DNA from: Escherichia coli
GTDB taxonomy: Bacteria; Pseudomonadota; Gammaproteobacteria; Enterobacterales; Enterobacteriaceae
Length of the DNA stretch: 64,000 nt
Strand: one strand, 5' to 3'
Assembly: GCF_013315695.1 (NCBI RefSeq)
Contig: NZ_CP054353.1
Every line of letters starts with the position of its first letter. Position 1 is the stretch's first letter. The notes under the pieces are model-generated. The model searched no databases. It was not told where the DNA came from and saw only the letters and a list, made by a program, of their open reading frames with translations. The position numbers and the translations under genes were made by a program. Of the stretch, positions 12,961 through 62,065 are shown piece after piece.

Positions 12961-14808
12961 TTACCTGATTAATTGTTCCGCTTTCGATACGATTTGCGAG
13001 CTGGATCGCGCAGGCAGATCATAATTGTAAATATCTGTACGATACTGGGTACGACCATCTGCACCAACAAAGGCCGTCAGGTAGTAGAGATTCACCGGAA
13101 TCGACTGCCGAATATTGACGTAACGCGTATCGCCCTGCTTCAGCGCATCAGAAATACGTTTGTCATTCCATCCTGCATCCTGCAACAGCATATTCGCCAG
13201 ATCGGAAGCTTTATTCACTCGTACACAGCCTGAGCTCAATGCGCGTGTATCACGTTTGAACAGATTGTGGTTCGGCGTGTCATGCAAATAAATGGCCTCT
13301 GAACTCGGCATATTGAATTTATAGCGCCCCAGCGAGTTCCGTGGGCCTGGAGCCTGCTGGAAGCGAAACGGTAAATTCGAGGCCGTGATTGTAGACCAGT
13401 CAACCTGCCATGGGTCAATCGCTTCTCTGTTGTTCCAGCCGCGCATCACCGTATAGCCATGGCTTTCGAGATACCCAGGATCATTGCGCACTTTCGGCAG
13501 AATATCTTTGCGTGCCAGAGTTGGTGGTACGTTCCACGGCGGGTTTACCACTACGTTGTTAAGTGCACTGCTCATCATCGGCGTTTTGCGATCGGGGCGA
13601 CCGACAATGACTCGCGAATCCAGCACCTGATTGCCGTTCTGATAGTAGACCAGCGAATAGGCTGGAATGTTAACCATGATCCCGGTAGAAAGCTCTGTTG
13701 GCAGCAAGCGCAATCGCTGGATGTTGAGTGCCAACACGCCAGCACGTTGGGCGGGCGTTACGTTTAACCAGTCACGCGTTGCCGGGCCAATAGCACCATC
13801 TGCCCCCAATCCTTGCCATGCCTGAAAACGTTTAACGGCTTCCACCAGTTCATTATCGTAGGCGGCACGAACGGCAGGCGCAGGTTTACTACGAGACGTC
13901 GTTTGCTTGTCCATCGGCTTAGTTTCTGCTGTTTCAACAGTAACAGCGGATGGGCTGACTACCGTGTCAGTTGGCGTGTCATCGCCAGGTAGCGTAATTT
14001 TCGGCCCCCCGTCCAACATGCCTGTGCGTTGCAATATTTCGCGCAACGCCGGTACGTCGTTACTCCACTGCCCTGGGCGCAACGTTGCTTTGCCGGTCAG
14101 TTGGGGCCACGGTTTGGTGTCACTGAGTAAGGCCAGTAACGATTCATGCATCGCTGCATATTGCGGATGCTGCGGTGCCAGACCTGCAACAAACGTCGGC
14201 AATTGACCTTTATCCAGCGCCAGCTGCCATTGGTTAATCACCGAAAGCGGCGGCGTTGAAAGCGCATAAGGTTTACTGCTATATAGCCAGCGAGTGCCTT
14301 TGACCGGAATATTTGCAATGAAATGGAGATAGCCCATCATCGCATCAGAGAGCACGACGTCGCGTGCCATCCCGTTAACACCAGGATCGGTCAGTAACTC
14401 TACCCATTTATTAAACTGCGGCTGGAAACCGGCAATCGCCACTTCTGCCAGCTGTTGCTGGAAGGCTTTAACAGCATCACGGTTTTCCCACATGGGTTGC
14501 ATATCGCGTGCGGCATACAACAGTTGAAGCTGGTTAAGATAAACCGGCTTATAGCCTGCAGGTAATTGAGATTCGATTTGCGTGCGGGCTTTTTCTGCCG
14601 CACCTTCAGGCAATGGCTGGATCCCCGCCATTATTGCCGTGGCCTGCGCCTGCGGCAGTGCCTCGCCCTGTTCGCTGACAGCCACCGGGCTGTCGCCAGG
14701 GATTACTTCAGGCTCATCGGCCTGCGCATTGAACAGTGGAGCGAATGTTACGGCCACGCACAAACTGATTGCCGACAGCCGACGACCACACATCATATTA
14801 AGCAACAT
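12961..14808 (-). CDS. ldtD: L,D-transpeptidase (YkuD domain, peptidoglycan 3-3 cross-linking)
   Basis: 615-aa ORF with signal peptide and a C-terminal YkuD catalytic region (...[25 protein letters not shown]...); matches YcbB/LdtD. Confidence 0.88.
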
Positions 14809-46089: not shown

Positions 46090-46212
46090 AGCACGAGAGC
46101 CTTTTTTGTCAGCTATCTATACTTTAAGGTGACTGCCAAAACAGACTCGACGTAGCCTTCGAGCTGCGCACCAACACGGCCTCAGATGGGCCACATCTGG
46201 AGAAACACCGCA

Positions 46213-46953
46213 ATGTCAGTTATTGGTCGCATTCACTCCTTTGAATCCTGTGGAACCGTAGACGGCCCGGGTATTCGCTTTATCACCTTTTTCCAGGGCT
46301 GCCTGATGCGCTGCCTGTATTGTCATAACCGCGACACCTGGGATACGCATGGCGGTAAAGAAGTTACCGTTGAAGATTTGATGAAGGAAGTGGTGACCTA
46401 TCGCCACTTTATGAACGCTTCCGGCGGCGGCGTTACCGCATCCGGCGGTGAGGCAATCCTACAAGCTGAGTTTGTTCGTGACTGGTTCCGCGCCTGCAAA
46501 AAAGAAGGCATTCATACCTGTCTGGACACCAACGGTTTTGTTCGTCGTTACGATCCGGTGATTGATGAACTGCTGGAAGTAACCGACCTGGTAATGCTCG
46601 ATCTCAAACAGATGAACGACGAGATCCACCAAAATCTGGTTGGAGTTTCAAACCACCGCACGCTGGAGTTCGCCAAATATCTGGCGAACAAAAATGTGAA
46701 GGTGTGGATCCGCTACGTTGTTGTGCCAGGCTGGTCTGACGATGACGATTCAGCGCATCGCCTCGGTGAATTTACCCGTGATATGGGCAACGTTGAGAAA
46801 ATCGAGCTTCTCCCCTACCACGAACTGGGCAAACACAAATGGGTGGCGATGGGCGAAGAGTACAAGCTCGACGGTGTAAAACCACCGAAAAAAGAGACGA
46901 TGGAGCGAGTAAAAGGCATTCTTGAACAATATGGTCATAAAGTGATGTTTTAG
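46213..46953 (+). CDS. pflA: pyruvate formate-lyase activating enzyme (radical SAM)
   Basis: 246-aa ORF from ATG 46213 ([23 protein letters not shown]...) with the radical-SAM cluster motif [10 protein letters not shown]. Confidence 0.96.
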
Positions 46954-47099: not shown

Positions 47100-50000
47100 C
47101 TACCCGTCGGCGTAAGGTATCAGCGGCTGTGGCGGTAAATCCATATCGCCCTGCCATCCGGCGGCGGAATACCGTACATAGAGCTGGAAGTGACTTGGCG
47201 CATAATCCTTCGCTTTCTGGATATCAATCGCCGTACCAACAAACCAGTTGGACGTGACGCGACGTTCAAGTAATGCCCGTGCCGTGTAACCAAAACCCTG
47301 ACTGCTGCTACCACTGTTGGATTGTTGTGCTGCTTCTTCCTGCCAGTCGCTCGGGATCAGGTTCATCAGCGGATAACGCGGCATGGTTTTGGTCCGTGAG
47401 TGCGACCATGAACCTGAAGCCCCCAGCTCCCACGACCAGTTTTCCGTCCGCTCGCGCCACATCACCGGCACCGCAAACGACAGGTATTCCTGCGGGCTGT
47501 AGTAACCGCCCTGACCCAGTGAGTACTCACTCAGGTCTTTGTCGTAATGCCAGATCATGTTGTTCAGGCCAATGGTAACGCGGCGGTTATTCTCGTTGAT
47601 AATTTTATAGTAATAGCCCGTCATCCAGCGCACGCGCCAGTTATCTTCGACATTTTTACCGGTTAACTGATCACCGCTAAGCGATGCCCAGACGCCGTTT
47701 GCTTCACCTTTATCGTAACTCAGACTTAGCCCCACGCCGTCGGCACGCACGCCGCCCCATTTTTTCCCGGTGTTGCCCGGAGAATCTTTCTGCCCGCCGA
47801 AGGCCAGCATTGAGCTGGAGACAGGCCGACGATGTGCGTCAACGGTATAGCCGAGTGGGCCGATACTGTCGCTGTAACTGACAGCGCCGACCACATCCAC
47901 CACGTTGAATCCCATCGGTGTGGTGCCAATATCCCAGCTCCAGGTGTCGTTGCGCCAGCCAACCGCCACGCTTGTGCCGGAGTCTGACTGACTGCGGTTG
48001 CCGCTACACTCCTGCAGCGTACAGGTTCCCCAGTTATCATCCCATTTGCCATCGGCATTAGTGGAGAAACTGCCGACGTTCATATTGACGAAATCACTGC
48101 GAAAGAACATCCGACCGTCAGAATACGGCGCATCCACCTGCAACATGGTGGTATGTGCTTTCAGGTCAGAATAGCCGCCAGTGCCGTTTGATCCCCAGTA
48201 GTCGTGCTCCAGGGTGACATTGAGATCCTGCTGACGATAAAGATCTGCCGCATCGCTGCGCACGCCACGTTTCAGCCAGTCATCCTGCTCATCATTACGG
48301 GTAAGGCGGGTAAAGGTGTCGTTATCCTGCGGACGTGTCGTCGTCACGCCGGAAGCGATCATCGCATCTTTGTAGGTTTCCAGCGCCTGTTGCGGTTCAC
48401 CCGCCTGCGCCTCAAATTTTGCGCCATCGCGCAGTACCATCGCGCTTTCCATCGACGGCGGCTGAGATTTTGCCTGCAGGATCAGCCTGTTAAATGTCTG
48501 CTGTGCCGCTGCGGTATCGCCAAGCTGTGCCTGCACCAACGCCACGCGCCGCTGAGTGTTCAGCGAGGCGTTATCGGTGGCGGGAAGTTTCGCCAGTTGA
48601 CTGCGCGCCGCGGCTTTGTCGCCTGCGGCAATATCCACTTCCGTCAGGCCAAGAATGGCATCGGCGTTATTCGACTCCCGCGCCAGCACATTCTGATACG
48701 CCGTGCGGGCGGCGGTGTAATCGCGTCGCTGTTGTGCCCAGTCAGCCAGCGTAAGATCAATGCGCGTGGAAGGCGGTTGCTGGCGTAGCATCGCCTCCGC
48801 ATCCTGTTCTTTGCCACTGTCACGCAGGCGATTAGCCGTTTCCAGAATCTGATCGCTTTGCAGGCGATTCACCAGTTCCTGAATGTTGCCGTTCCACCGG
48901 GCGCGCGGCAGATTGTTAATATGCGCCAGCGCCGCCCGCTCCTGATCGTGACCGGAGAGATACAGTCCGTAAGCGTAAACCTGGTCCGGGTCGTTCGGCT
49001 TCTGTTGCGCCAGGTTACGCATTAACGTATCAGCCTGGGTACGTTGTCCGGCCTGCCAGAGATCCTGCGAAAGCCGGTAAGTTACCCACACACTGCCGGG
49101 GTCCAGCGCCAGTCGTTGCCGCTGAAGTGCTGCCGCCTGCGCCCATTTACCCTGATTTTCCAGCGCCTCCGCCTGCTGCGATAAGCGATCGTTTTGCAGA
49201 CTGCGTTCGATATCATCAATACTGCGCCGCTGGCTGGCAGAAAGTGACGCAATAAACGCTTCAGCTTTTTCCGGCGATTGCTGCCGATAAATGTTCGCCA
49301 GTCCACGCACGGCGTTAGTGTTGCCGCTGTCCATACGCAGGGTCTGCTGATAATAACGTTCGGCGGCGGGGTAATCTTTTCGCGCCATTGCCACATCACC
49401 CAGCCCCAGCACCGCATAGCTGTCGGTGTTATCGACATTGCGTGCCTGCAGGAACAGGCGTTCCGCCTGATCAGGATTGTTCGCTTTCAGTGCGGCATCG
49501 CCCTGTTGGATCGCCAGCCAATAACGGTTCACTTTCAGCAAACTGTTCCATTTGTCGTTGTTGCTGCTGTGCGGGCCCAGCGCGAGGGCTTTTTCCAGAT
49601 TTGCCACCGCATTCGCGCGATCGCCTTTCTGTGAATAAGCCTGGCCCAGCGCCCCCAATATTGCACCAGAGTTTGGGTTATCAATATTAAGTTTTTTCAA
49701 CTGACTAATTGCCTCGTTGCGACGAGATGCAATTTGCGCCACTGCACTCCAGTATTCCAACGCCATGCCGACATCTGACGGTACTCCGTTAAATAGCTTG
49801 TCATAACTGACAATAGCCTCCTCGTATCGCCCGGAGATAGCTTGTAAACGCGCCATTTGCAATGCCTGGCGCCCCTCAAGCGAAGAAAGTCGCATGACCG
49901 TACGCGATGCTTTATATATTTTTGAATCTGGGGCGATCAGAGAAAGTCTGGCAAGTTGTTTGTGTGCTCCGTCAATATCCCCCTTGCGAAGCAGATAGCG

Positions 50001-50207
50001 AAACCGAGCCGCAACGACATCAGGATTATTGGGCTCCACCAATTCAAGGCGATAAAGCGACTGCTCCACCAGTTCTTCACGGTGAGAGTCTTCTCCCAAT
50101 CGAATCTGTGCCATCAGCAGTTGATAAGCAGTTGGCGTGGCTTTTGCCATCGACATTACCGCCAAACCAAGAGATATGGTGAGTAAATTTAGGGTGAATT
50201 TGTGCAT
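47100..50207 (-). CDS. BcsC-like outer-membrane exopolysaccharide export protein (N-terminal TPR region + C-terminal beta-barrel)
   Basis: About 1035-aa ORF (ATG at 50207; track start 50219 is TTG) with signal peptide MHKFTLNLLTISLGLAVMSMAKA, multiple TPR-like repeats, and a C-terminal region rich in alternating aromatic/Gly beta-strands typical of BcsC barrels. Last gene of the co-oriented cluster. Confidence 0.8.
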   Translation of the reverse strand: MHKFTLNLLTISLGLAVMSMAKATPTAYQLLMAQIRLGEDSHREELVEQSLYRLELVEPNNPDVVAARFRYLLRKGDIDGAHKQLARLSLIAPDSKIYKASRTVMRLSSLEGRQALQMARLQAISGRYEEAIVSYDKLFNGVPSDVGMALEYWSAVAQIASRRNEAISQLKKLNIDNPNSGAILGALGQAYSQKGDRANAVANLEKALALGPHSSNNDKWNSLLKVNRYWLAIQQGDAALKANNPDQAERLFLQARNVDNTDSYAVLGLGDVAMARKDYPAAERYYQQTLRMDSGNTNAVRGLANIYRQQSPEKAEAFIASLSASQRRSIDDIERSLQNDRLSQQAEALENQGKWAQAAALQRQRLALDPGSVWVTYRLSQDLWQAGQRTQADTLMRNLAQQKPNDPDQVYAYGLYLSGHDQERAALAHINNLPRARWNGNIQELVNRLQSDQILETANRLRDSGKEQDAEAMLRQQPPSTRIDLTLADWAQQRRDYTAARTAYQNVLARESNNADAILGLTEVDIAAGDKAAARSQLAKLPATDNASLNTQRRVALVQAQLGDTAAAQQTFNRLILQAKSQPPSMESAMVLRDGAKFEAQAGEPQQALETYKDAMIASGVTTTRPQDNDTFTRLTRNDEQDDWLKRGVRSDAADLYRQQDLNVTLEHDYWGSNGTGGYSDLKAHTTMLQVDAPYSDGRMFFRSDFVNMNVGSFSTNADGKWDDNWGTCTLQECSGNRSQSDSGTSVAVGWRNDTWSWDIGTTPMGFNVVDVVGAVSYSDSIGPLGYTVDAHRRPVSSSMLAFGGQKDSPGNTGKKWGGVRADGVGLSLSYDKGEANGVWASLSGDQLTGKNVEDNWRVRWMTGYYYKIINENNRRVTIGLNNMIWHYDKDLSEYSLGQGGYYSPQEYLSFAVPVMWRERTENWSWELGASGSWSHSRTKTMPRYPLMNLIPSDWQEEAAQQSNSGSSSQGFGYTARALLERRVTSNWFVGTAIDIQKAKDYAPSHFQLYVRYSAAGWQGDMDLPPQPLIPYADG

Positions 50208-51968
50208 ACCTGGACTCAATCAGGTGTTAACTCACTTTTTATTAAAAAATGAATAAGCGCAGTTCCCTGCCCTGCCTGTTTAAGGCCAGAGCAGAGAGCT
50301 ACAAAGATGAATTACTGTTGATGAGGATTCAGACGACGATGGCTAATGATGCGTAGCAGACGCCAGACGACCCACGCCAGAAGCACCACACTCAGCATTG
50401 CCATTCCTGCCAGCAAAACAGGATGTTTCGCTAACATATATTGCGCGCGCTCAATCCAGGGAAGATGCCCCACATAATAGGTATCTCCAACCCGTAAACT
50501 ATCGACACCTGATTCACGAATAACCGCAACTGAGCCAAATATATTGCCACGTTTTGCACTATTAATTAGCGCATTATTAAGTAACTCGTCACCACGTGCC
50601 CCCTCGGTCATTAATGCAATTACGCTACGTTGGGGATGATATGGAGACTGGAAACCAACCACCGCGGCCATTGGCGATGGAGAGATCATGCTTGTTTGTG
50701 TTTCAGTTTTTTGGTTGTTTTCATCTGTCATAATTTGTGCGTTATCAGAGTGCCGCATTGGCGTTTTTACCCAACTAGCGGTTGCATCAATGAGCAGATT
50801 AATTTGCTGCTGACCTGCAAATTCTTGCGGAATTGCCCCTATCAGCAGGATGTCTGCATCCTTATTCTGGATGGAGCTTATATCATCAGTAACTGTCAGA
50901 TTAATTGCCGGAAATCCGGTTTGAGCACCAATCAATCCAAGGGTATTTAGCAATATTTCAACCTGCGTTGTACCAGGATGTTCAGGCATAACGATGACTG
51001 TTTCAGATAAATCGGCCATACGGCTAAAAGGAAAGCCTGAACTAGCAAAGGCGCGTAAATCTGGCATGGCGATAAAGTGATGATACTTTGAAAAATCGAT
51101 AGTAGAATCATCAGCAATAACTGCATGGTTATTCAGAGGCCGGGAAATAATACAACTCCCGTCATCAGTACTCGGTATCGTATTAACGTACTCAAAATTG
51201 AATCGTAATTGATTAAGTGCCCCCAATGTCAGCGCCGGAATGGTAATTTTATTATTGCTATCTGACAATTCTTGCAATAACGGTAAATGTAATAGCAGTC
51301 GATCAGTAGTCGAGCGCGGGCTTGGGCGAAAAGATTCAATGTACTGATTATTAAGATTAACATCAATACGAGAACCGCCTACCATTGGCGTGGTATAGCG
51401 ATAGTTAATCTTCATATCAACCCCACTATTACGTAACAGAAAGAGATCAGGCGGCAAATTGAATGAAACATTAATTGCTGCGATCTGCAGGGCACTTGCC
51501 TGTAACTGTCCTTCATAGTTTTTAAGCTCTGCGAAAGTTACAGGACGATCAGTGCGAACCCAGTTTGGCGCATCATAAGGTTTGCGTGGCAGCAGTGGTT
51601 TCACGTCATTTACAACCACACTATCGCCGCGAAACAGTATATTTCCCTGAGCGAGACCTTTTGCTGCCTGTAATAAATCTTTGTCATCGCGGCCCCAAAT
51701 TACCAACAATTTGACGAAAGGATTTTGTGGATGGTTAATCATCTTAATAACAGGTGCATTCACCAACGGATGATCACGCAAAAAGTCTGGCCGTCTATTG
51801 TTAGTGGCAAAGACTATAGCATTGCTTTCCGGTAACTGATTATAAAAAACTGGAAATTGATGACCACGCCACCCCGATTGCGAACCAAACCACGAAGCGA
51901 CAATTGCAGATGCTTGCTGCAAACCAGCCTCCGGTGGGCCAGCAAAAACCATCGGCAATGTATTAGTA

Positions 51969-51977
51969 CGGTTATCT
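51969..51977. repeat. 9-bp IS1 target-site duplication, left copy (CGGTTATCT)
   Basis: Identical 9-mer at 52746-52754 flanks the other end of IS1. Confidence 0.9.
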
Positions 51978-52032
51978 GGTGATGCTGCCAACTTACTGAT
52001 TTAGTGTATGATGGTGTTTTTGAGGTGCTCCA

Positions 52033-52308
52033 GTGGCTTCTGTTTCTATCAGCTGTCCCTCCTGTTCAGCTACTGACGGGGTGGTGCGTAACGGCAAAAG
52101 CACCGCCGGACATCAGCGCTATCTCTGCTCTCACTGCCGTAAAACATGGCAACTGCAGTTCACTTACACCGCTTCTCAACCCGGTACGCACCAGAAAATC
52201 ATTGATATGGCCATGAATGGCGTTGGATGCCGGGCAACAGCCCGCATTATGGGCGTTGGCCTCAACACGATTTTACGTCACTTAAAAAACTCAGGCCGCA
52301 GTCGGTAA
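52033..52308 (+). CDS. insA: IS1 InsA (transposition inhibitor / N-terminal part of InsAB' transposase)
   Basis: 91-aa [45 protein letters not shown]... matching IS1 InsA. Confidence 0.95.
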
Positions 52309-52730
52309 CCTCGCGCATACAGCCGGGCAGTGACGTCATCGTCTGCGCGGAAATGGACGAACAGTGGGGCTATGTCGGGGCTAAATCGCGCCAGCGCTGG
52401 CTGTTTTACGCGTATGACAGGCTCCGGAAGACGGTTGTTGCGCACGTATTCGGTGAACGCACTATGGCGACGCTGGGGCGTCTTATGAGCCTGCTGTCAC
52501 CCTTTGACGTGGTGATATGGATGACGGATGGCTGGCCGCTGTATGAATCCCGCCTGAAGGGAAAGCTGCACGTAATCAGCAAGCGATATACGCAGCGAAT
52601 TGAGCGGCATAACCTGAATCTGAGGCAGCACCTGGCACGGCTGGGACGGAAGTCGCTGTCGTTCTCAAAATCGGTGGAGCTGCATGACAAAGTCATCGGG
52701 CATTATCTGAACATAAAACACTATCAATAA
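52227..52730 (+). CDS. insB: IS1 InsB frame (expressed as InsAB' via -1 frameshift)
   Basis: 167-aa ORF in the -1 frame relative to insA, matching IS1 InsB. Confidence 0.9.
52282..52290 (+). promoter_or_regulatory. IS1 programmed -1 ribosomal frameshift site (TTAAAAAAC)
   Basis: The A6C slippery motif lies in the insA/insB overlap, where the IS1 frameshift site is known to be. Confidence 0.7.
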
Positions 52731-52745
52731 GTTGGAGTCATTACC

Positions 52746-52754
52746 CGGTTATCT
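52746..52754. repeat. 9-bp IS1 target-site duplication, right copy (CGGTTATCT)
   Basis: Exact repeat of 51969-51977. Confidence 0.9.
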
Positions 52755-53455
52755 CGCGGATCAAAGAATGGCACAGGAAAATATGAAAGATCATTTTGCA
52801 GATTGAGTTTCTGGACGACCAGACCAAGTTCACTGTTACGTCCAATATCAAGCCACAAGTTATTGCTGGTTGAGATTTCACAGCTATTCTGATAATGGCC
52901 AATTAATTCAAAACGCAAACGATTAAAATCCGAGAAATACAATGGGTTAAGCGTTATTTCCGCCAACGTTTTTTTTCCCAGTTGTTCTTTGGTAATCGGT
53001 AATACTCCCATCAACTCATCATTAAGATAAACTTTAAGCTGCGACTGAACGGGGATCAATGACGGTGACGGAGTATATTCAAGCTTTAGTTTTGCATCTG
53101 AAACTATCTCATCACTGCGCATACCAAATTCAATATACCCCAGTGGGTTGACACCATTCAAAACGATGTTACCAGGCGCTGGTGATATTTGTGTAAATGG
53201 AAGTTTAAAATGATAAGAGGAATCTTTCGCATAAACAGAGACGTTAGACTTCTCTATAGCGGGTAATACTATCCCGGAGGGAGACTTATGGATTATGGTA
53301 TCTAAAGCTGATGCAGCATTTGCCTGGTATAACCATAAAAACCCTAAGCAAATTATTGCAGTAATAAATTTTAAATATTTTCTTTCCATTTTAAAAATTT
53401 CAAGAGACATAATCAACACAAATAATATATTTAGTTGGTTAAATATAATCTAAAA

Positions 53456-55570
53456 CTAATTCTCACGACTATTTTTTAGTGTCCGCAGAATATAAAAAAT
53501 CATATTGTAATACCCTTTAAGAGAGATGATACATACGTCAAAAAAGCTCTTTAGTATATTATCTTGCTTAATTTTATCATTCCACTCTTGCCATAATGAA
53601 TCACGTGAAAATGTTACTCTGACATAATTAATATTCTGTTCATAAGTCATTGGCAAAATCTTCAGACCAATTTTATTTTTGTAAGCATGAACAACTTTTA
53701 CAGGAATATCACATTCCCCTTTATTATCACTCAGATAAAGAGACAAATGCTGAGTTTTTTCGATTTCTTTTACATCGGAGATGTGATCAACAATAACCCC
53801 CAGGCCACCTTCGGAGAAATCAATAACAGAACAGGGATAGCACCGTCCATCTGCTAGTTTTATCACACCTTTAAAAGAAACATCTATCCGAGGAGAAAAG
53901 CGGACCTGCTTTTGTTCAATAGAGACTGCCAGGGTTGCGCCAATAATAATTGTATTATAAATCAACCAAATCAAACAAAATAAATTTAATATAACAAGAT
54001 GACCTTGCAATCTATAAATATTAATAACACCTATTATTAGTCCAATTAAATTTAAAATAGCAAAAATAAGATAAGGATATGAGATTCGCCAGTCAACAAA
54101 TTTATTTTTTATTAACCCGCCCTTGGCAGTAACGTTAAATCGCCCTTTAGCTGGCGCAAGTAAGGCAACAAGCGTTGGTAGTGTAATATACCAGGCCAGA
54201 ACCATTTCATAAATTTCATTCCAAAATGAATGTCTGTATTCACCCTGAACTCTTGAGTTAGTAAAAATAATCACAAATAGATAAGGTAGAACATAAGACA
54301 TAATATCTGCAACCGACGCATCTATCAAATTAACTGAAAAGAAAATAGGACATAGTGGCGCGAATAAAAAAATCAGCCGTGGAACCCCTGATAAAAAATG
54401 CATCATGCTACTGAGATAGCAAAGACGCTGTGATAACGTCAGCCCTTTGCCCAATAATGGATTATCAATACGTAAGATTTGGATCATGCCCCTGGCCCAC
54501 CGTATTCGTTGTCCGATATGAGCAGACAATGTTTCGGTAGCAAGTCCAGCGGCCAGAGGATAGCGAAGATATGCGGAGCTGTACCCTGCACGATGCAAGC
54601 GTAGCGATGTATGCGCATCTTCCGTTACCGTTTCAACTGCAATGCCTCCAACCTCATCTAATGCAGACCTACGGATAACCGCGCATGAACCACAAAAAAA
54701 TGAAGCATTCCATGTATCGGTGCCATTCTGGATTAAACCATAAAAAAGATGTCCTTCATTTGGTTTCTGCCGAAATTGCCCCAAGTTTCGCTCAAAAGGA
54801 TCGGGAGAGAAAAAATGATGTGGTGTTTGCAGCATCGATAGTTTTTTATCGGCAATAAACCAGCCCATCGTTTTTTTTAAAAAAGAAACGGAAGGAATAT
54901 GATCACAATCGAAAATAGCAACAAATTCGCCGTTAGCTATTTTAAGCGCATTGTTTATATTTCCAGCTTTCGCATGTTCATGCGTTTCTCTTGCAACATA
55001 GCAAATACCTGACTCATCAGCAAATTTCCTGAATTCGTCTCTGGCACCATCATCAAGAAGCCAGACATGTAATTTATCTTTTGGCCAGTCTAAAGCCAGC
55101 GCTCCATAAACTGTATTCTTCACGACAGTAAAGGGTTCATTATATGTAGGTATGAATATATCGACATCAGGCCATTCTTCTTTATTATCTGGTAAAGGTA
55201 TGCTTTCCCTGTTCAATGGGAAACAGACCTGAAAATAACCAAGTAATAAAACAAACCATGCATACGTTTCAGCAGCTAACAGCGTCAATGAAAAGAAGCT
55301 GTCAGGAAACTCATCAAGAATAACTGAAGAAGAGTAACGCCACCATAGATACCTTGTGGATATAAGTATACCAATACCCATTAAGATCAGGGTAATCATC
55401 CTTCCCCTGAGCAAATTGAGGAGAAAAACAGAGATACAAATGATAATCGAGAATAGTGTTTGTTGATAAAAACCGAGCGGCTGTTCAACAATTGACAAAA
55501 AAACAAAACATAGCAATATAGCAACAAAAAGAAAAATTTTGTTGTATATTTCTTTATTTTTTAAATTCAT
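53456..55570 (-). CDS. BcsA-like processive family-2 glycosyltransferase with C-terminal PilZ (c-di-GMP-binding) domain
   Basis: 704-aa ORF with eight or more predicted TM helices, GT2 motifs (LLDDGARDEF, FDCDH, TVTEDAHT, QRIRWARG, FFCGSCAV) and PilZ motifs (RFSPR = RxxxR; DFSEGG = DxSxxG). About 35% GC. Confidence 0.88.
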   Translation of the reverse strand: MNLKNKEIYNKIFLFVAILLCFVFLSIVEQPLGFYQQTLFSIIICISVFLLNLLRGRMITLILMGIGILISTRYLWWRYSSSVILDEFPDSFFSLTLLAAETYAWFVLLLGYFQVCFPLNRESIPLPDNKEEWPDVDIFIPTYNEPFTVVKNTVYGALALDWPKDKLHVWLLDDGARDEFRKFADESGICYVARETHEHAKAGNINNALKIANGEFVAIFDCDHIPSVSFLKKTMGWFIADKKLSMLQTPHHFFSPDPFERNLGQFRQKPNEGHLFYGLIQNGTDTWNASFFCGSCAVIRRSALDEVGGIAVETVTEDAHTSLRLHRAGYSSAYLRYPLAAGLATETLSAHIGQRIRWARGMIQILRIDNPLLGKGLTLSQRLCYLSSMMHFLSGVPRLIFLFAPLCPIFFSVNLIDASVADIMSYVLPYLFVIIFTNSRVQGEYRHSFWNEIYEMVLAWYITLPTLVALLAPAKGRFNVTAKGGLIKNKFVDWRISYPYLIFAILNLIGLIIGVINIYRLQGHLVILNLFCLIWLIYNTIIIGATLAVSIEQKQVRFSPRIDVSFKGVIKLADGRCYPCSVIDFSEGGLGVIVDHISDVKEIEKTQHLSLYLSDNKGECDIPVKVVHAYKNKIGLKILPMTYEQNINYVRVTFSRDSLWQEWNDKIKQDNILKSFFDVCIISLKGYYNMIFYILRTLKNSREN

Positions 55571-55643
55571 GGTACGTAACTATTCATTAATACTATGATT
55601 TGACTTTAAAAAAACGAATGAATGATGTCATAAAAATAAAATT

Positions 55644-56984
55644 TTAACACCAGGTTACCTGTGCTCTTCCATTTTGCTTACTTTTGTATAATCGTTCATC
55701 TGCCAGTAATTTCAACCGTTCAATGTTATTCATGCACTCGTCAGTATTGGCAACACCAATACTGCAACTACAATTCAATCCACCTATTGAGAAATGGACT
55801 ATTCTGTGCAAAATTCTTGATAATTGATTTATATCTTTATCATGATAAATAATAGCGAACTCATCGCCACCAAATCGATAAACTTCACCTTTGCTGAGGG
55901 GTAATTCATCCTTAATAAGATTAACAAGTCTTATTAGTACTTCATCACCAAATAAATGACCAAACTTGTCATTAATGGTTTTAAACTTATCTACATCAAA
56001 CAGGCATAAATATCCAAAATCCTTACTCAGCATCCTGATATTTTTATCAAAAACACGACACCCAGAAGCTCGCGTCAATGCATCGTAAGTCCCGGAATCA
56101 TATATTTCTCTAATTGCATCAATCTCTTCAACGTTAAAGAATAGATTTTTTCCATGCAAATTATAATGATTATTCGATAATATAGATTCTTTTTCTGACT
56201 TACCCTTATTTATGATTTTTTGCATTAATTTAATGTAATGAAAATATATTAACCCCGCAGAAATCGCCGATGTGAAAACAAAAAACAAGCACATATAAAT
56301 ATACTTATCTTTTTTATAGGCAACAATAAACATTACTTCCGGGATATAAGAATAAGCAAGAGTGATCGCTGATTTCTCAAATACAGCATCATTAATCAAA
56401 AAATCATCACCCGCGATTTTCTTTTCATTATCATTGATATCATAAAATGAGACATATATATTTTCCCGTTCACCTGACTGATTTCTTATCAAAGCCAAAT
56501 AACGTTCAGGATCTACCACTGATATCAAACTTGTTCGTTTCGAAATAGGATGAGCATAATAAATATAATATTTATTATTTAAACTAATAATCCCTCTTTC
56601 AAAGATGTTACTTATACGGATAGAAGAAACTATGCCGTCACAAAAGTTATCCCCTTCCGTTGTAACTTTGGCGCATTTACCATCGCTAATGATATAGGGA
56701 CCTAGATCATAAATATATTCTGGTTTTTGAAAGTCAGCAAAACTATTGCGTATCCTTTTTAACAACTCTTCCGGAGAAATATCTAACCCATAAAATACAT
56801 TATTAAATACTAAGCGCCGATACTCAGACACATTAGCTATAGCAAGCCCACTATCTATGATCGATACCTTTACCGAATTGACTCGATCTTTAACGTAAAT
56901 AGTATACAGATAACATGTCATTACAGAGACACATAAAAAATACAAAAAACAGATCCCTGCTGCCTTTTTTTTATACTTAAACAT
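55644..56984 (-). CDS. membrane-anchored diguanylate cyclase (two TM helices flanking a periplasmic domain + GGDEF domain); DgcI/YliF-like by architecture
   Basis: 446-aa ORF with GGDEF-domain motifs DALT, FDVDKFKTINDKFGH, RFGGDEFAII and ADERLYKSKQNGR; no RxxD I-site five residues upstream of GGDEF. About 30% GC. Confidence 0.85.
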   Translation of the reverse strand: MFKYKKKAAGICFLYFLCVSVMTCYLYTIYVKDRVNSVKVSIIDSGLAIANVSEYRRLVFNNVFYGLDISPEELLKRIRNSFADFQKPEYIYDLGPYIISDGKCAKVTTEGDNFCDGIVSSIRISNIFERGIISLNNKYYIYYAHPISKRTSLISVVDPERYLALIRNQSGERENIYVSFYDINDNEKKIAGDDFLINDAVFEKSAITLAYSYIPEVMFIVAYKKDKYIYMCLFFVFTSAISAGLIYFHYIKLMQKIINKGKSEKESILSNNHYNLHGKNLFFNVEEIDAIREIYDSGTYDALTRASGCRVFDKNIRMLSKDFGYLCLFDVDKFKTINDKFGHLFGDEVLIRLVNLIKDELPLSKGEVYRFGGDEFAIIYHDKDINQLSRILHRIVHFSIGGLNCSCSIGVANTDECMNNIERLKLLADERLYKSKQNGRAQVTWC

Positions 56985-56988
56985 TGTG

Positions 56989-59337
56989 TTATTTTCTTTT
57001 TTTCGGTTTACTGTCTATATGCCACTCTGAAAACGGTAATGGTTTCTGGTATAAATATCCCTGAACATGGGAGAAGCCTAATTTTTGTAATTCTCTGGCC
57101 TGTCTTTCTGTTTCAACACCTTCAGCGATCACTGGCATATTTTCTTCTCGTGCAAGACTAGATATAAAACACACAACCCTGTTAGTTTCATCGAAAATAC
57201 CAGAAGTAAATTCTGAATCAATTTTGATGCTATCAGGTCTAACTTTGTATAATTTTTTCAAGTCAGCTAACCCACTGCCAAAATCATCAAGGGAAATTTT
57301 AATGCCATTTCTTCTTAAAAATTTTATATTATTATAAAAACTATCATTTATATCTTTCATTGCTGACTCGGTGATCTCCAGACAGATTTGTTCCGTATTT
57401 ACGCCAAATTTATTAATTAAATTCAAAACGCGGGTATGGAAATCAAATTCATTTAACTGCCAAGGTGAAACATTGATATGCAGAAGAAATTCTTTCGTAA
57501 TTTCATACTCACGACTAAATGAACCAAATTCACCAATAGCCGTTTCAAGAACAAAATCACCCAGTTCTTTAATTAAGCCAATTTCTTCAGCAACAGGCAC
57601 GAAAACTGATGGTGGTATTGCACCATTTTCAACGGACAACCAGCGGCATAACGCTTCGGCGCCAACAACATTATTACTATCCATATCAACAATCGGTTGA
57701 TATACTAAATAAAACTCACTACTCACAATTGCTTTTTTTATATTTCCAGCAACCCAAACCTTTTGATCAAGTTCATGAGCCTTAATATCATCATAAAATA
57801 TAAATTCAGATTCTTTATTTTCTCGCATAGCTGTTAATGCCAGTTTCAGTTTACCTTCATAAATCGACAAACTTTCCCCTGAAAAAGTTTCACAAATAGC
57901 AACCTTATGAACATAAATATTTCTTATGCAAAAAATATGCTCAGGAAAGTTTAAAACAGATAATCGTTCTATGAACTCTTCACAATGAGTGTGACACAGC
58001 AACAAATATGTTTCAGTAGAAATTTTTATAATATCACAATATTTAGAATACTTTGCTGATATCTTTGATTTTATATCATTAATGATCTCATAAAATTTCT
58101 GACTGCCATGTATAGCCTCTACAAACTCTAATCCATAGATACAAAGCATACCAACTGCTGAATAGGTTTTATTATTAGTTTCAATGACAGATTTGTTGAT
58201 ATAGAAACAACTTCCTTGTTCATAGGAAACAAGATTAAGTAACCGTTCCATCCGCTCTTTGTATTTGTCACTAATGTTATTAATGATTTTTTTGAGCTCA
58301 ATAATCTCACTACTGTCATTTTGCACGATTTCGATTTTATCATTTCGGTATACTGAGCTCGCTAATTTTTTCAGATGCTCAATTAGTTTACCAGAGTCGT
58401 TTCTAACCTTTTTTGTTATCTTTTCAAAAAGGTACCATAATAAACAGAAACAAACCAAACCACATACAAACATCAGTGTAAAATATTTATTTATGTTTGT
58501 GTCTTCTGCTTTTTGATAATGAAAATAATGAAATTTGACATCAGGAAGCCTGGGGAGTGAAATAATATCGTCCGTATAATTACCGTTATTATTACTTATG
58601 TTATAACGTCCAGATGCATCTCTAACAATAAGATGTAACATTGATTGTTCATTACCTACCATAATCCTTTTATTCTGTTCCATAAATAAAATATCTGCAT
58701 TTCCTCCTAATTTGTCCAGGAAATTGCTAAAATATCTTTCATCAAGATCTAAATGAATTAACTTCAGAGCAAATGAATCTTTTTCTGCTTCGGCTGGTCG
58801 TAATGAAAACGAAAAACATTTTTTCCCGGCAATGCCATAGCAGTTATACCATGGTGACCATTTTGAATAAGTCCCTGTTGGTAATTTATTCCAGGGACGG
58901 GATTCAGGATCAAAGTAGTTATCGTTAATTTCACCATCAGGGCTAGTAAAAGCATGACCTGGCTCTGATTGCCCCAAAAATTTAACATCACCATTATCAG
59001 TTCGAATAAAGCTAAGATACTTTCCATTATTTAGCATTATTCCGACTAAATTAACAGAATCTATCTTTTTCATCCGATGAAGAACTGCGCGTTTTATTTC
59101 ATTTTCATCGTGTAACAGATAAATGGCATCTTTTAAAGCATCCGCCTCTTTTTCAACTTTAGAAAAAAAGTTATTCAAATTATTATTGATAAGTATAAGA
59201 TTAATGCGTGAAGAGTTTTCTGCTATTTTTTTATAAAAATCAATGGCTGTAATAAATGATAAAATAATATAGACAGTGACAGCGAATATAAGCGCAGTGT
59301 TAAATCTTGAGTTTAATTTTTCTGTGATGCTATACAT
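56989..59337 (-). CDS. membrane-anchored c-di-GMP phosphodiesterase (periplasmic sensor domain + cytoplasmic linker + EAL domain); PdeI/YliE-like by architecture
   Basis: 782-aa ORF; EAL-domain catalytic motifs are intact (EALCRW, NVSPWQ, EITES, DDFGSGL, KIDSEF, EGVETE, GYLYQKP). Its stop is 4 bp from the dgc start. Confidence 0.85.
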   Translation of the reverse strand: MYSITEKLNSRFNTALIFAVTVYIILSFITAIDFYKKIAENSSRINLILINNNLNNFFSKVEKEADALKDAIYLLHDENEIKRAVLHRMKKIDSVNLVGIMLNNGKYLSFIRTDNGDVKFLGQSEPGHAFTSPDGEINDNYFDPESRPWNKLPTGTYSKWSPWYNCYGIAGKKCFSFSLRPAEAEKDSFALKLIHLDLDERYFSNFLDKLGGNADILFMEQNKRIMVGNEQSMLHLIVRDASGRYNISNNNGNYTDDIISLPRLPDVKFHYFHYQKAEDTNINKYFTLMFVCGLVCFCLLWYLFEKITKKVRNDSGKLIEHLKKLASSVYRNDKIEIVQNDSSEIIELKKIINNISDKYKERMERLLNLVSYEQGSCFYINKSVIETNNKTYSAVGMLCIYGLEFVEAIHGSQKFYEIINDIKSKISAKYSKYCDIIKISTETYLLLCHTHCEEFIERLSVLNFPEHIFCIRNIYVHKVAICETFSGESLSIYEGKLKLALTAMRENKESEFIFYDDIKAHELDQKVWVAGNIKKAIVSSEFYLVYQPIVDMDSNNVVGAEALCRWLSVENGAIPPSVFVPVAEEIGLIKELGDFVLETAIGEFGSFSREYEITKEFLLHINVSPWQLNEFDFHTRVLNLINKFGVNTEQICLEITESAMKDINDSFYNNIKFLRRNGIKISLDDFGSGLADLKKLYKVRPDSIKIDSEFTSGIFDETNRVVCFISSLAREENMPVIAEGVETERQARELQKLGFSHVQGYLYQKPLPFSEWHIDSKPKKRK

Positions 59338-60436
59338 ACTGGTGTTCTGACTAAAATGTTATCAATAATTTCGATATTACATTATATAAAGTTCGGTATA
59401 TGAAATGGTATTAATACTCCTCTTTATGATTTTCTGAATTAAATGATCTCCATTCTGTAAATATATCATAATGAGAAGATTGATTTTCTCTTAATTTACC
59501 AAAGTTATTATCATGCTTATTACTTTAACCAGAATGACATTATCATATATAGCGTTTATACTTTTGCATCTTCCACCCACGCTACCGCCTTTCGTTAATT
59601 TATCAACGAAATAATTTAGATATGAAAAAATCAATATATGACGCCTAAGCTATCACATTATGCATAGTTGCGACATTCACCTCTTTAATTATCCCAAAGA
59701 GGTATTAATGTGAATTCTCTATCATCCATTTTGCTGATTTATCTTTTTTCAGTCATGAGCAATCCGACTCTCTTAGCCAAAATAAATTAATAACCTTAAA
59801 ATGAGGTTTAATCAGAAAGTAGTAGCCACAGCTTGACTATTAAGACTATAAATTAGCCATAACGATGGACAGATAAATATGTTAATGAATACATGTTCAA
59901 TAAAACAATAAGGCACAACGCCAGGCCACCATTTTATTTTAAAAATAAAAGGCTGTGAACTATGCCAGGTATAATCTGATTCTATCGAGAGAGAATTTTT
60001 GTAAGTTACAAATACTGCAAAAGACACATTACACAAAATTTTTAACCACACAAACACCTTGTGTTCTGTATAACAGAACAATAGCTGTGGTCATTTTCAG
60101 CAAGTTTAACTAAAATTATCAAGAATTTTTTTTGATGTATATCAAAAACAATAGTCTTCGCGCATCCGTTACTGCTTAACATTTACCCACAAAGTTCATA
60201 TTTTCACCACACATAATCGTTCACTTCAGAACTTAAAATAATAACTTGCAAAATAACCAATAATTAAAACTATCACTGCATCTAAAAATAAAGATTAAGA
60301 TAACTAAAATTCGTATTATCACGGCATCGTTTATCGCCACCCGTCTCTTAAGAAAAATTTAACTTTGCTATTATCAGTCCTCTCCGAATTTCTCTTCTAT
60401 TTACTGCGATAACCCCGGCGAACCGGGGCATGATGA

Positions 60437-61856
60437 CTATTTCTTATTCGCTTTACGCGCAAGTAACGGGAATATCAGCCCCAGTCCAACCAGGACAAAT
60501 GGCGTCGCAATATTCAGCGCCAACTGAAAAGTCCACTCTGCGGTGAAGGCTTCCATTTTCGGGAAAATCCCTGTCAGGCAGGCAAAAGCGGTAAAGGTAA
60601 AACACCAGATCCCGACAGTCATCGCCAGCGGCCTGTTACGAATAAAGACATACTCTGGTTTATATTTCTGCGCCAGGCGAACGACTGCAATAAATGCAAC
60701 AAATACCCATAAATAACGCAGCGGCATCACTACCGAATTAAGGTTCAACAGCCATTTATAGAGATTGTTCATATCACCAATGCCGAGAGTCGGCAGCATA
60801 ATCAGAATCGCCACCAGTACCAGGGTCAGAAAATAGCCATTAACGGGCGTACCAGAAGCGTTGGTACGACATAAACTGGCTGGAATATATTTGCTATCAG
60901 CATCGCCTAATAGTACTTTAAGCGGCGCATCAATCGAGAATACCAGCGCAGCTACTTGTCCCAGGGTATTCGCAATGGCGTAAATCACCATTAAAGTATT
61001 ACCCATGTTGTAATACTCGCCCAGCTTCTGAAAGGCGTAATACTGACCGTTGGTCATTAAGTCATCCGGGATATTACGCGAATCAAACATCATCCCCATC
61101 GCCAGCGAGCCCAGAATGGCACAAACCGCAACCATCACCGCCAGGCATAACATCCCTTTTGGAAATTCTTTTCCTGGGTTGCGCGTTTGATTAACGTAAG
61201 GAGAAATCTTCTCTGCTCCGCCAACCGCGAAAACCAGCATTGAAATAGTGGTAATGTAGGTAAAGTCGATATGAGGAATGAACGTTTCCCAGGTAATGTT
61301 TGTGGTCGCAATATGCACTTCAGTAATTGCAGGCGCGGTTACCGCCATCGCCACATACAGGAGCGACATAACAAACATCGCAATCCCTGCCACAGAACCG
61401 ACGATTTTCAGCGATTTCATACCGCGTGAAGCAACCCACATAAAGAAGATAAACAGCACCAGCGTTAACCCCTGTAACGCTACGACTGAATATTCTTTGA
61501 TTAACGAACCGTCGCCTTTCATCGCCCAACCGAGCGCAATCAGTATTGCCTGGGGTTTTTGTGCCAGATAGGGAATATGCACTACCCAGTAGGTCCACGC
61601 GGCGAGGTAAGCCAGTCCGGGTCCCATCGTGTGTTTAATCCAGGTACTGACCCCGCCCTTCCCATCTTTGAAGGTCGAGCCTAACTGACCAACAATTAGC
61701 GCATAAGGTGTGAAATAGAGCGCAAAGATAAACACCCATGAAAAACCCCTGGTTGGCGTAGTTATTAACAACGTTGCCAAAACCCCAGACAGTGATAAAA
61801 GACATCAGCGCAATGTTGTACCATCGCAGCTGTTTTTCCTGAACATTCCCAGCCAT
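60437..61856 (-). pseudogene. ycaM: APC-family amino acid/polyamine transporter gene with a frameshift near the 5' end
   Basis: The N-terminal 37 codons (MAGNVQEKQLRWYNIALMSFITVWGFGNVVNNYANQG, from ATG 61856) are in one frame and the remaining 447-codon ORF (from 61780) in another; the frames switch at an A5/T5 homopolymer at 61741-61745. Confidence 0.7.
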
Positions 61857-62065
61857 AGACAAATCCTTCGCCAAAATTAAAGGGGCATCTGTAAAACGAG
61901 GGATTATGCGCGGCAAATAAGAAGTGCGGAAATAGCGAAATGCAAAATTATAACCTGCTGCACATTTTATTTTGAAACGAATAAAATTTGGAATAAAGCA
62001 AGTCAGATAGAAGAAACAAAAAAGCAGAGTGTGAAACAGTAAGTTCACACTCTGCGTTAATTCAT

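Follow-up and report, generated by a model that had tools for sequence, protein, structure and literature searches.

A chimeric bcsC gene with a native 5' part and a core-type 3' part in an accessory cellulose operon of Escherichia coli

We examined a 64,000-nucleotide stretch of Escherichia coli DNA (NCBI RefSeq contig NZ_CP054353.1 of assembly GCF_013315695.1; hereafter the window), which was matched in the database to the chromosome of E. coli MSB1_4I at 100% identity. The gene order in E. coli K-12 is pflA-ycaK-ycaN-ycaM; in the window, a module replaces ycaK-ycaN and carries an accessory cellulose operon, placed between pflA (plus strand) and ycaM (minus strand), with its genes on the minus strand in the order EAL, GGDEF, bcsA2, bcsB2, and bcsC2. 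The last gene, bcsC2, is a chimera of a native 5' part and a core-type 3' part, which supports the hybrid bcsC that an initial annotation of this DNA had proposed. The features of the locus are listed below with their G+C content (GC), in places also the G+C content at third codon positions (GC3); TPR stands for tetratricopeptide repeat, and PGAP for the NCBI Prokaryotic Genome Annotation Pipeline.

46186..46953, plus strand: pflA, right flank; the module begins after its stop codon, and collinearity with K-12 ends at 46952
47100..50207, minus strand: bcsC2, whole gene, 1035 codons plus stop
47100..49655, minus strand: putatively core-derived 3' segment of bcsC2, codons 185-1035 plus stop (distal TPRs, beta-barrel); GC 0.572, GC3 0.64
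49656..50207, minus strand: native 5' segment of bcsC2, codons 1-184 (signal peptide, TPR#1 to about TPR#4); GC 0.476
50312..51977, minus strand: 3' fragment of the interrupted bcsB2; GC 0.441; 'BcsB, incomplete' in PGAP
51978..52745, plus strand: IS1A within bcsB2, 768 bp; GC 0.534; 99-100% identical to IS1A in thousands of records
52746..53389, minus strand: 5' fragment of bcsB2; GC 0.376
53456..55570, minus strand: bcsA2, accessory cellulose synthase, 704 aa; GC 0.369; NCBIfam NF008558, 1012.8 bits (cut-off 992)
55644..56984, minus strand: GGDEF-domain protein (YliF/DgcI-like, GAPES2 sensor); GC 0.322; TIGR00254 GGDEF match
56989..59337, minus strand: EAL-domain protein (YliE/PdeI-like, CHASE9 sensor); GC 0.321; EAL phosphodiesterase families match residues 498-773
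59338..60436, no strand: AT-rich non-coding leader of 1.1 kb, left end of the module; GC 0.311
60437..61867, minus strand: ycaM, left flank; frameshifted here according to PGAP

BcsA2, BcsB2, and BcsC2 all score above the NCBIfam equivalog cut-offs. Residues 9-700 of BcsA2 align with positions 148-836 of the 872-position NF008558 profile, so that the protein, at 704 aa compared with 872 aa in the core enzyme, is without the N-terminal extension of about 147 residues and a C-terminal extension of about 30 aa. Its GT2 core and PilZ domain are kept (an identical protein has Pfam records for GT2, Cellulose_synt, and PilZ), and it shares 52% amino acid identity with K-12 BcsA over 698 columns. Intact BcsB2 (766 aa) reaches 1159.8 bits against NF008325 (cut-off 922). 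BcsC2 reaches 1859.9 bits against NF008520 (cut-off 858) in two separate stretches; its residues 177-1034 correspond to profile positions 299-1156, and positions ~177-298, equivalent to about 3.6 TPRs, are missing. The sensor assignments draw on Pfam records of orthologues, with CHASE9 and EAL for the first protein (for which PGAP also uses the name 'CHASE9 sensor') and GAPES2 and GGDEF on the E. marmotae orthologue of the second, a protein called YliF-like in a recent preprint (Hosseinpourlamardi et al., bioRxiv 10.1101/2025.05.09.653004). None of bcsZ, bcsQ, bcsR, bcsE, bcsF, and bcsG was identified within 46.9-60.5 kb; they exist at the separate core locus of this genome. Rfam and consensus promoter and terminator scans of the same interval returned nothing informative. 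The leader is present only in the nine module-bearing genomes described below, homology to other E. coli starting at 60438 (the ycaM stop codon), and it contains no open reading frame (ORF) longer than 89 aa and no Rfam family; presumably it either serves the operon as a regulatory leader or is what is left of a decayed gene.

The base composition of the module is strongly heterogeneous. Per-gene values were taken on the intact allele of strain MS 21-1 (L003), the bcsC2 of which is identical to that in the window. GC and GC3 are 0.322 and 0.25 for the EAL gene, 0.324 and 0.28 for the GGDEF gene, 0.367 and 0.30 for bcsA2, 0.424 and 0.365 for bcsB2, and 0.555 and 0.605 for bcsC2, and the difference in GC3 among the five genes is highly significant (chi-square p = 4e-66). 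By comparison, 500-nt windows outside the module have a mean GC of 0.511 (sd 0.041), placing the EAL and GGDEF genes and the 1.1-kb leader 4.7-4.9 sd under the background. The figures read by eye in the initial annotation were accurate (computed values: 32% for EAL/GGDEF, 37% for bcsA2, 42% for bcsB2, and 55.5% for bcsC2), as was its remark that the first ~0.5 kb of bcsC2 is more AT-rich, the GC being 0.476 in the first 552 nt and 0.572 in the other 2556 nt. It also described these values as a gradient. A rise in total GC is indeed present, but at synonymous sites the change is stepwise: likelihood segmentation of GC3 yields three blocks, namely 0.298 from the EAL gene to bcsB2 codon 713, 0.470 from bcsB2 codon 714 to bcsC2 codon 183, and 0.637 over bcsC2 codons 184-1035. 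GC3 does not differ significantly among the EAL gene, the GGDEF gene, and bcsA2 (p = 0.09); it does between bcsA2 and bcsB2 (p = 0.015). The rise in total GC from 32% through 37% to 42% lies mostly at codon positions 1 and 2, which suggests that it reflects protein constraint rather than different origins. A local bump of 0.53-0.55 at 52.0-52.75 kb is the IS1A element and is foreign to the operon's own composition.

The step into the third GC3 block coincides with a breakpoint in the identity of bcsC2 to core bcsC. The maximum chi-square method places this breakpoint at nt 550-552 of the gene (49656-49658 of the window), with values of 148.8-302.5 that were reached in 0 of 1000 permutations; the sharp junction predicted for a hybrid bcsC was thus recovered. 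Mismatch to core bcsC is 32-33% on its 5' side and 6.6-11.9% on its 3' side. Upstream, bcsC2 is ~67% identical to every core bcsC, with 59-77% identity to each of them across codons 1-180 in 30-codon windows of the codon alignments. Compared with core bcsC, bcsC2 has a 366-nt (122-codon) gap between 49679 and 49680 of the window, at which core residues 177-298, in TPR-equivalent positions, are absent; the breakpoint sits 24 nt downstream of it. In agreement, megablast matches to core bcsC in 5,426 complete E. coli genomes (found in 5,425 of them) are confined to 47101-49657, at ~88% and no more than 88.6% identity.

This level of identity bears on the source of the 3' segment. The hybrid had tentatively been attributed to recombination with the canonical bcsC of E. 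coli, which is right as to a core-type bcsC but not as to the resident E. coli gene as donor: the core bcsC alongside bcsC2 in the same genome (227148-230621 of NZ_LR898874.1) is only 88.1% identical to the 3' segment, with a longest identical run of 65 nt. The segment is 93.0% identical to the core bcsC of the E. albertii type strain, reaching 95-98% in many 120-nt bins, and small E. coli-like patches occur within the E. albertii-like sequence. Neighbour-joining on the 5' 176 codons groups all bcsC2 alleles into a single clade (100% bootstrap); on the 3' 851 codons, it joins the window allele to E. albertii core bcsC as its sister (100% bootstrap). The phylogeny therefore points to an E. albertii-like donor and not to the resident E. 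coli core gene, and the conversion would have taken place in another Escherichia lineage. In the window's own genome, the two paralogues are not more alike than genes of different lineages are, and the tract it carries appears to be a relic of an earlier host. We considered misassembly with the resident core gene, and rejected it: the 3' segment is too different from that gene for an assembly chimera, and the copies from four genomes described below differ by only 0-8 nt. Conversion in the reverse direction, from bcsC2 to the resident core gene, was also rejected, as no window of the alignment shows such a tract.

Additional copies of the module allow the 3' segment to be followed across hosts. 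The module was found in nine of the 5,426 complete E. coli genomes, inserted at the pflA-ycaM site in all seven that were inspected. The copies fall into two allele groups ~15% apart, allele A in six genomes and allele B in three. The allele-A copies compared (the window, MS 21-1, AF14, and E7-1N7) are those that differ by 0-8 nt in bcsC2. In all allele-A copies, the encoded protein ends in ...PYADG (GGG TAG, window 47100-47105), whereas core BcsC and the other chromosomal bcsC2 alleles, in all cases examined, end in ...PYADW (TGG TAA), and the plasmid type in ...PYAND. An outer-membrane beta-barrel that has lost its C-terminal aromatic residue may be hampered in its assembly. A further copy occurs in 'E. 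coli E69', which is the representative of a separate GTDB species. Its bcsC2 is 99-100% identical to allele B in the 5' part, and in the 3' part it is 97.6% identical to E69's own core bcsC compared with 87.9% to allele A; in the 3' tree, it pairs with that core gene (100% bootstrap), and the allele-B copies fall inside the E. coli core clade (94-97% bootstrap).

Strains N3 and E69 each have core bcsC and bcsC2 in the same genome. In N3, bcsC2 is identical to the strain's own core bcsC over nt 556-827 and is 99.0% identical to it over nt 1093-2604, higher than to K-12, with runs of 272 and 338 nt that are identical to the core gene; the last ~500 nt are still of E69 type. In both N3 and GF43, E. 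coli-type sequence begins directly after the breakpoint, whereas in 06-00048 the first ~720 nt past it are of E69 type and only then does E. coli-type sequence follow; all three retain E69-type sequence over at least the last 240 nt. The tract ends thus differ between N3 and GF43, 06-00048, and E69, and the tracts are nested. Allele-B copies are 98-100% alike in the 5' part and up to 13% apart within the 3' part, and the chromosomal alleles all share the 5' boundary and the 366-nt gap. These patterns suggest that the 3' 2.5 kb of bcsC2 has been repeatedly overwritten by the core bcsC of the same genome, and that in allele B it was converted anew, probably at least twice independently, by the core bcsC of the hosts in which this allele now resides.

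The same module is present at the same site in E. marmotae, with the same GC3 profile, and in E. ruysiae. The annotation of E. marmotae has no ycaM between ycaD and the EAL gene (L054/L055 3882-5222); therefore, the left module boundary is not the one seen in E. coli and E. ruysiae. The 3' segment of the E. marmotae bcsC2 is 88-92% identical to every core gene compared. Two E. ruysiae contigs (L056 and L057) end inside bcsC2, at 14446 and 14328, that is, 750-870 nt into the gene and shortly past the point where it turns core-like. Such short-read contig ends probably result from near-identity to core bcsC and collapse by the assembler. In the window, the last 250 nt of pflA are 93% identical to K-12, with 98-100% identity farther off, and the first 300 nt of ycaM beside the module (its 3' end) are 86-94% identical, followed by 97-100%. 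This decay in identity fits an import of the module by recombination in its flanks. The frameshift in ycaM is also seen in AF14 (1420 nt, not 1431); the gene is intact in MS 21-1.

Plasmid-borne clusters of E. coli show an even more extensive replacement. Their bcsA and bcsB are 57% and 67% identical to the core genes, and a stretch that begins with the final ~120 nt of bcsZ and stops 10 nt short of the bcsC stop codon is 97% identical to K-12. In one such cluster (L006 8293-8872), the 580-bp spacer between bcsB and bcsC holds a degenerate native bcsZ remnant that corresponds to BcsZ residues 291-362, with 49% identity overall and a core-like stretch in the last ~120 nt. In plasmid A of E. coli S56 (L007 4893-6239), bcsB is separated from the core-type bcsC by a group II intron (ltrA). 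Between the chromosomal and plasmid types, amino acid identity is 73% for BcsA and 61% for BcsB. Replacement of the 3' end by core sequence therefore appears to be a general feature of Escherichia accessory bcs clusters.

The window copy of the module is defective, as bcsB2 is broken by IS1A. The element is flanked by a 9-bp target duplication, CGGTTATCT, at 51969-51977 and 52746-52754, in agreement with a 9-bp overlap of the matching coordinates in MS 21-1, and it encodes an IS1A transposase with a programmed frameshift according to PGAP (InsB ORF at 52227-52730). The 3' fragment of bcsB2 is collinear with the intact gene of MS 21-1 (L003 7330-8995). Other module copies have decayed as well, with IS3 in bcsB2 of strain GF43 (L053 4609-5837), an EAL gene split into CHASE9 and EAL ORFs in AF14 (L052 11230-13577), and a bcsC2 with an internal stop codon in E. 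marmotae CP056165.1 (L055 13601-16708). It is worth mentioning that the core bcs locus of the window's genome (NZ_LR898874.1 219546-220243; L046 34547-35244) holds the same IS1A transposase, WP_103215986.1, with bcsE lacking its N-terminus and bcsR cut to a 66-nt fragment. With IS1A present in both loci, both cellulose systems of this strain are damaged by the element.

Of the native parts of the operon, BcsA2 and BcsB2 have close relatives only in Escherichia. A homology search among 5.8 billion proteins identified no AT-rich donor lineage for BcsA2 and BcsB2; beyond their Escherichia relatives, identity drops to a flat plateau of core enterobacterial proteins (52-56% for BcsA2 and 60-66% for BcsB2). 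In neighbour-joining protein trees of both BcsA2 and BcsB2, the two accessory clades branch as sister to the core clade of the Enterobacteriaceae, with stems of 0.40 for BcsA and 0.046 for BcsB. Separate origins of bcsA2 and bcsB2, as the discordance between 73% and 61% identity might imply, were considered and dropped, since the two trees give the same position and only the branch lengths differ. The initial annotation also raised the option that the module was assembled from parts of different origin. This holds for the replaced 3' segment of bcsC2; for the rise from the EAL and GGDEF genes through bcsA2 to bcsB2, a difference in origin is not shown, because BcsA2 and BcsB2 share their tree position and the rise is mostly at codon positions 1 and 2.

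Overall, the most probable explanation, to which we assign a probability of roughly 0.85, is that an accessory AT-rich operon for cellulose synthesis regulated by cyclic di-GMP (c-di-GMP) had the 3' part of its bcsC2 overwritten, recurrently, by core-type bcsC. Its composition shows three layers: an AT-rich native layer from the leader to near the end of bcsB2, an intermediate layer spanning the final ~50 codons of bcsB2 together with codons 1-184 of bcsC2, and a host-like, GC-rich layer over bcsC2 codons 185-1035. The third layer would arise by homologous recombination (gene conversion) with a core-type bcsC, a direction of transfer, from core to accessory gene, that we infer from the trees. 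The 5' limit of conversion may be fixed at about nt 552-555 of bcsC2 by a heterology barrier beside the 366-nt gap, where usable homology ends. As for the likely order of events, the conversion of the window allele would have occurred in another Escherichia lineage, with a subsequent inter-species transfer in which the module entered E. coli by recombination in the pflA/ycaM flanks; in allele B, the same segment would have been converted again by the core bcsC of the present hosts. The IS1A insertion contributes a separate block of 53% GC and inactivates bcsB2.

Several points weigh against this explanation. The intermediate block (GC3 0.47) and the difference between bcsA2 and bcsB2 are only loosely explained by it. 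The direction of transfer is deduced from phylogeny, and the first entry of core-type sequence beside a stretch that is only ~67% identical is not accounted for by simple homologous recombination. The core bcsC of the E. albertii type strain is only 93% identical to the window segment, which leaves either a true donor outside the sample or an old, patchy tract; moreover, no E. albertii genome with the module was found. Finally, the tracking of the host core by the segment was observed in E69 and in two E. coli tract types.

Among the alternatives, it is conceivable, but in our judgment unlikely, that the operon arose long ago by duplication of the core bcsAB(Z)C of enterobacteria or of Escherichia and has progressively escaped from concerted evolution. 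It would once have been homogenised throughout, until deletions (of the BcsA N-terminus, bcsZ, and 3.6 BcsC TPRs) blocked conversion ever further 3', with GC and identity to core falling with time since escape, first in bcsA2, followed by bcsB2 and the 5' end of bcsC2, while the 3' end of bcsC2 would still be homogenised. Nucleotide identity to the core genes does climb along the operon, from 55% in bcsA2 and 67-68% in bcsB2 to ~67-68% in the 5' part and 88-99% in the 3' part of bcsC2, and GC3 follows the same order. The same account would also accommodate the lack of an AT-rich donor outside Escherichia, with core enterobacterial BcsA and BcsB as the next relatives, and the fact that the junctions of the chromosomal and plasmid types fall at homologous, collinear positions. 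In addition, the nucleotide tree joins the bcsC2 5' segment to the Escherichia core clade as its sister (100%), and allele A has 4 of 12 Escherichia-specific residues compared with ~8% of the residues diagnostic of other clades. However, the protein trees put BcsA2 and BcsB2 basal to the Enterobacteriaceae core clade and not within Escherichia, the protein tree of the BcsC N-terminus has less than 50% bootstrap at the relevant nodes, and the diagnostic residues, with only 3-5 Escherichia-specific sites in each protein, are suggestive at most. The contrast between the BcsA and BcsB stems would require ad hoc changes in rate, and the share of GC at codon positions 1 and 2 implies that much of the total-GC trend is protein constraint. 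A bolder extension, in which the composition profile is a clock of escape from concerted evolution, with cut-off segments drifting AT-rich and diverging fast, seems doubtful to us; if true, the 3' 2.5 kb of bcsC alone would still be homogenised and would record past hosts (E. albertii-like here).

It is also possible, although we think it improbable, that selection for a modular porin keeps the boundary in place, the N-terminal TPRs being fitted to BcsB2 and the distal TPRs and beta-barrel working best when host-like, so that only recombinants built in this way would last. In the E. coli complex, all contacts to BcsB are made by TPR#1 of BcsC, with BcsC residues Gln30, Gln34, Leu37, Gln49, Arg53, Leu56, and Ile57 facing BcsB residues 108, 162-166, and 207-210 (PMC11379886). 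TPR#1 lies within the unconverted native part of bcsC2, where two contact residues are changed (Q30L and I57V/A; codons 30 and 57, window approx. 50037-50120), and changes are also seen at partner positions of BcsB2 (F163Y, I164F, and V209L in core BcsB numbering). These substitutions may represent co-variation, and the location of TPR#1 could offer a functional rationale for the chimera boundary, which we regard as a lead only. Plasmid clusters likewise have a host-type BcsC. On the other hand, five of the seven BcsC contact residues are unchanged, and the plasmid clusters combine a wholly core-type BcsC, including TPR#1, with a BcsB that is 65% identical to core; therefore, a native TPR#1 is not obligatory. 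Furthermore, the frequent inactivation of the module (by IS1 here, IS3 in GF43, the split EAL gene in AF14, and the stop in E. marmotae L055) indicates weak selection, and allele A has lost the conserved C-terminal Trp.

Far less likely is a one-off assembly in which an AT-rich bcsAB captured a core bcsC fragment once and all later differences represent vertical divergence. The common 5' boundary and 366-nt gap in all chromosomal alleles look like the product of a single founding event, but the bcsC2 3' segments pair with different core lineages (94-100% bootstrap) and not with each other. The identical runs of 272 and 338 nt in N3, and allele-B copies that are nearly the same at the 5' end and diverge at the 3' end with different tract ends, do not fit vertical divergence either. 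Finally, amelioration, that is, a foreign AT-rich operon drifting toward host composition by codon adaptation, fastest in bcsC and with no exchange of sequence, would match the GC of the bcsC2 3' part to that of core genes, but it can be practically dismissed, as it cannot account for nucleotide identities of 93-100% to particular core alleles, for a step confined to ~3 nt, or for lineage-specific pairing.

Recurrent overwriting of bcsC2 by core-type bcsC, if correct, has several implications. It corrects the description of these clusters, as the outer-membrane subunit would not be co-inherited with the synthase and would come partly or wholly from the core gene of the host; therefore, BcsC trees could not be read as the history of the cluster. 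It would also provide a clear natural case of recurrent core-gene conversion into a mobile accessory paralogue, with datable, nested, cross-species tracts, and the converted tract might serve as a marker of earlier hosts. The boundary of this natural BcsC chimera, just past the BcsB-docking TPRs, could guide domain swaps in studies of periplasmic cellulose export. In practical terms, near-identity to core bcsC can mislead annotation and pangenome clustering.

The module type itself has already been described. Hosseinpourlamardi et al. (bioRxiv 10.1101/2025.05.09.653004) reported accessory bcsABC clusters, 'bcs2/bcs3', with BcsA2 and BcsA3, that are restricted to Escherichia and located on the chromosome or on plasmids; BcsA2 and BcsA3 are 43% and 41% identical to BcsA1, and BcsA3 is chromosomal. 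The cluster in the window, which is chromosomal and 73% identical to the plasmid type in amino acid sequence, is probably the one named 'BcsA3'. It shares with bcs2/bcs3 a BcsA without the N-terminal extension, bcsB and bcsC, the absence of bcsZ, bcsQR, and bcsEFG, and an adjacent pair of YliE-like EAL and YliF-like GGDEF genes. According to the preprint, BcsB and BcsC 'cluster concordantly' with BcsA; it makes no mention of GC content, recombination, hybrids, pflA, or ycaM; in contrast to a concordant BcsC, we found a BcsC that is chimeric (chromosomal) or wholly core-derived (plasmid), with lineage-specific tracts. Full-text literature searches for bcsC gene conversion found nothing. Hence the chimera appears not to have been described before, nor its recurrence in different species or its generality within accessory clusters.

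Compared with the core class II locus, bcsRQABZC-bcsEFG, the module has BcsA2, BcsB2, and BcsC2 that pass the same equivalog cut-offs, and core enterobacterial BcsA and BcsB are the nearest proteins outside the accessory clade. Unlike the core locus, it is without bcsZ, bcsQ, bcsR, bcsE, bcsF, and bcsG, 122 TPR residues of BcsC, and the N-terminal extension of BcsA, which in the core enzyme is the part that recruits BcsG (PMC11379886), and it has its own EAL/GGDEF pair.

The proposed mechanism, gene conversion between paralogues, is of a known kind, its outcome here being read from sequence alone. Two well-studied systems are comparable. The tufA and tufB genes of Salmonella and E. coli undergo RecA-dependent gene conversion, resulting in concerted evolution of the duplicates. 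As in that system, there are two copies per genome, likeness within a genome exceeds that between orthologues of different species, and the homogenised tract is sharply bounded. Mosaic penicillin-binding-protein genes of Streptococcus and Neisseria arise by homologous recombination between species, and they resemble bcsC2 in having blocks that differ in divergence and composition, sharp junctions, and donors among related species. The putative donor of the bcsC2 segment differs in being a paralogue at another locus rather than an orthologous allele, and we know of no selective agent for the bcsC2 mosaic. The differences from tufA/tufB are that a mobile accessory gene is paired with a core gene, that only the 3' 82% of the gene is homogenised, and that the accessory copy would carry its converted tract across species, hence the E. 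albertii-like sequence inside E. coli.

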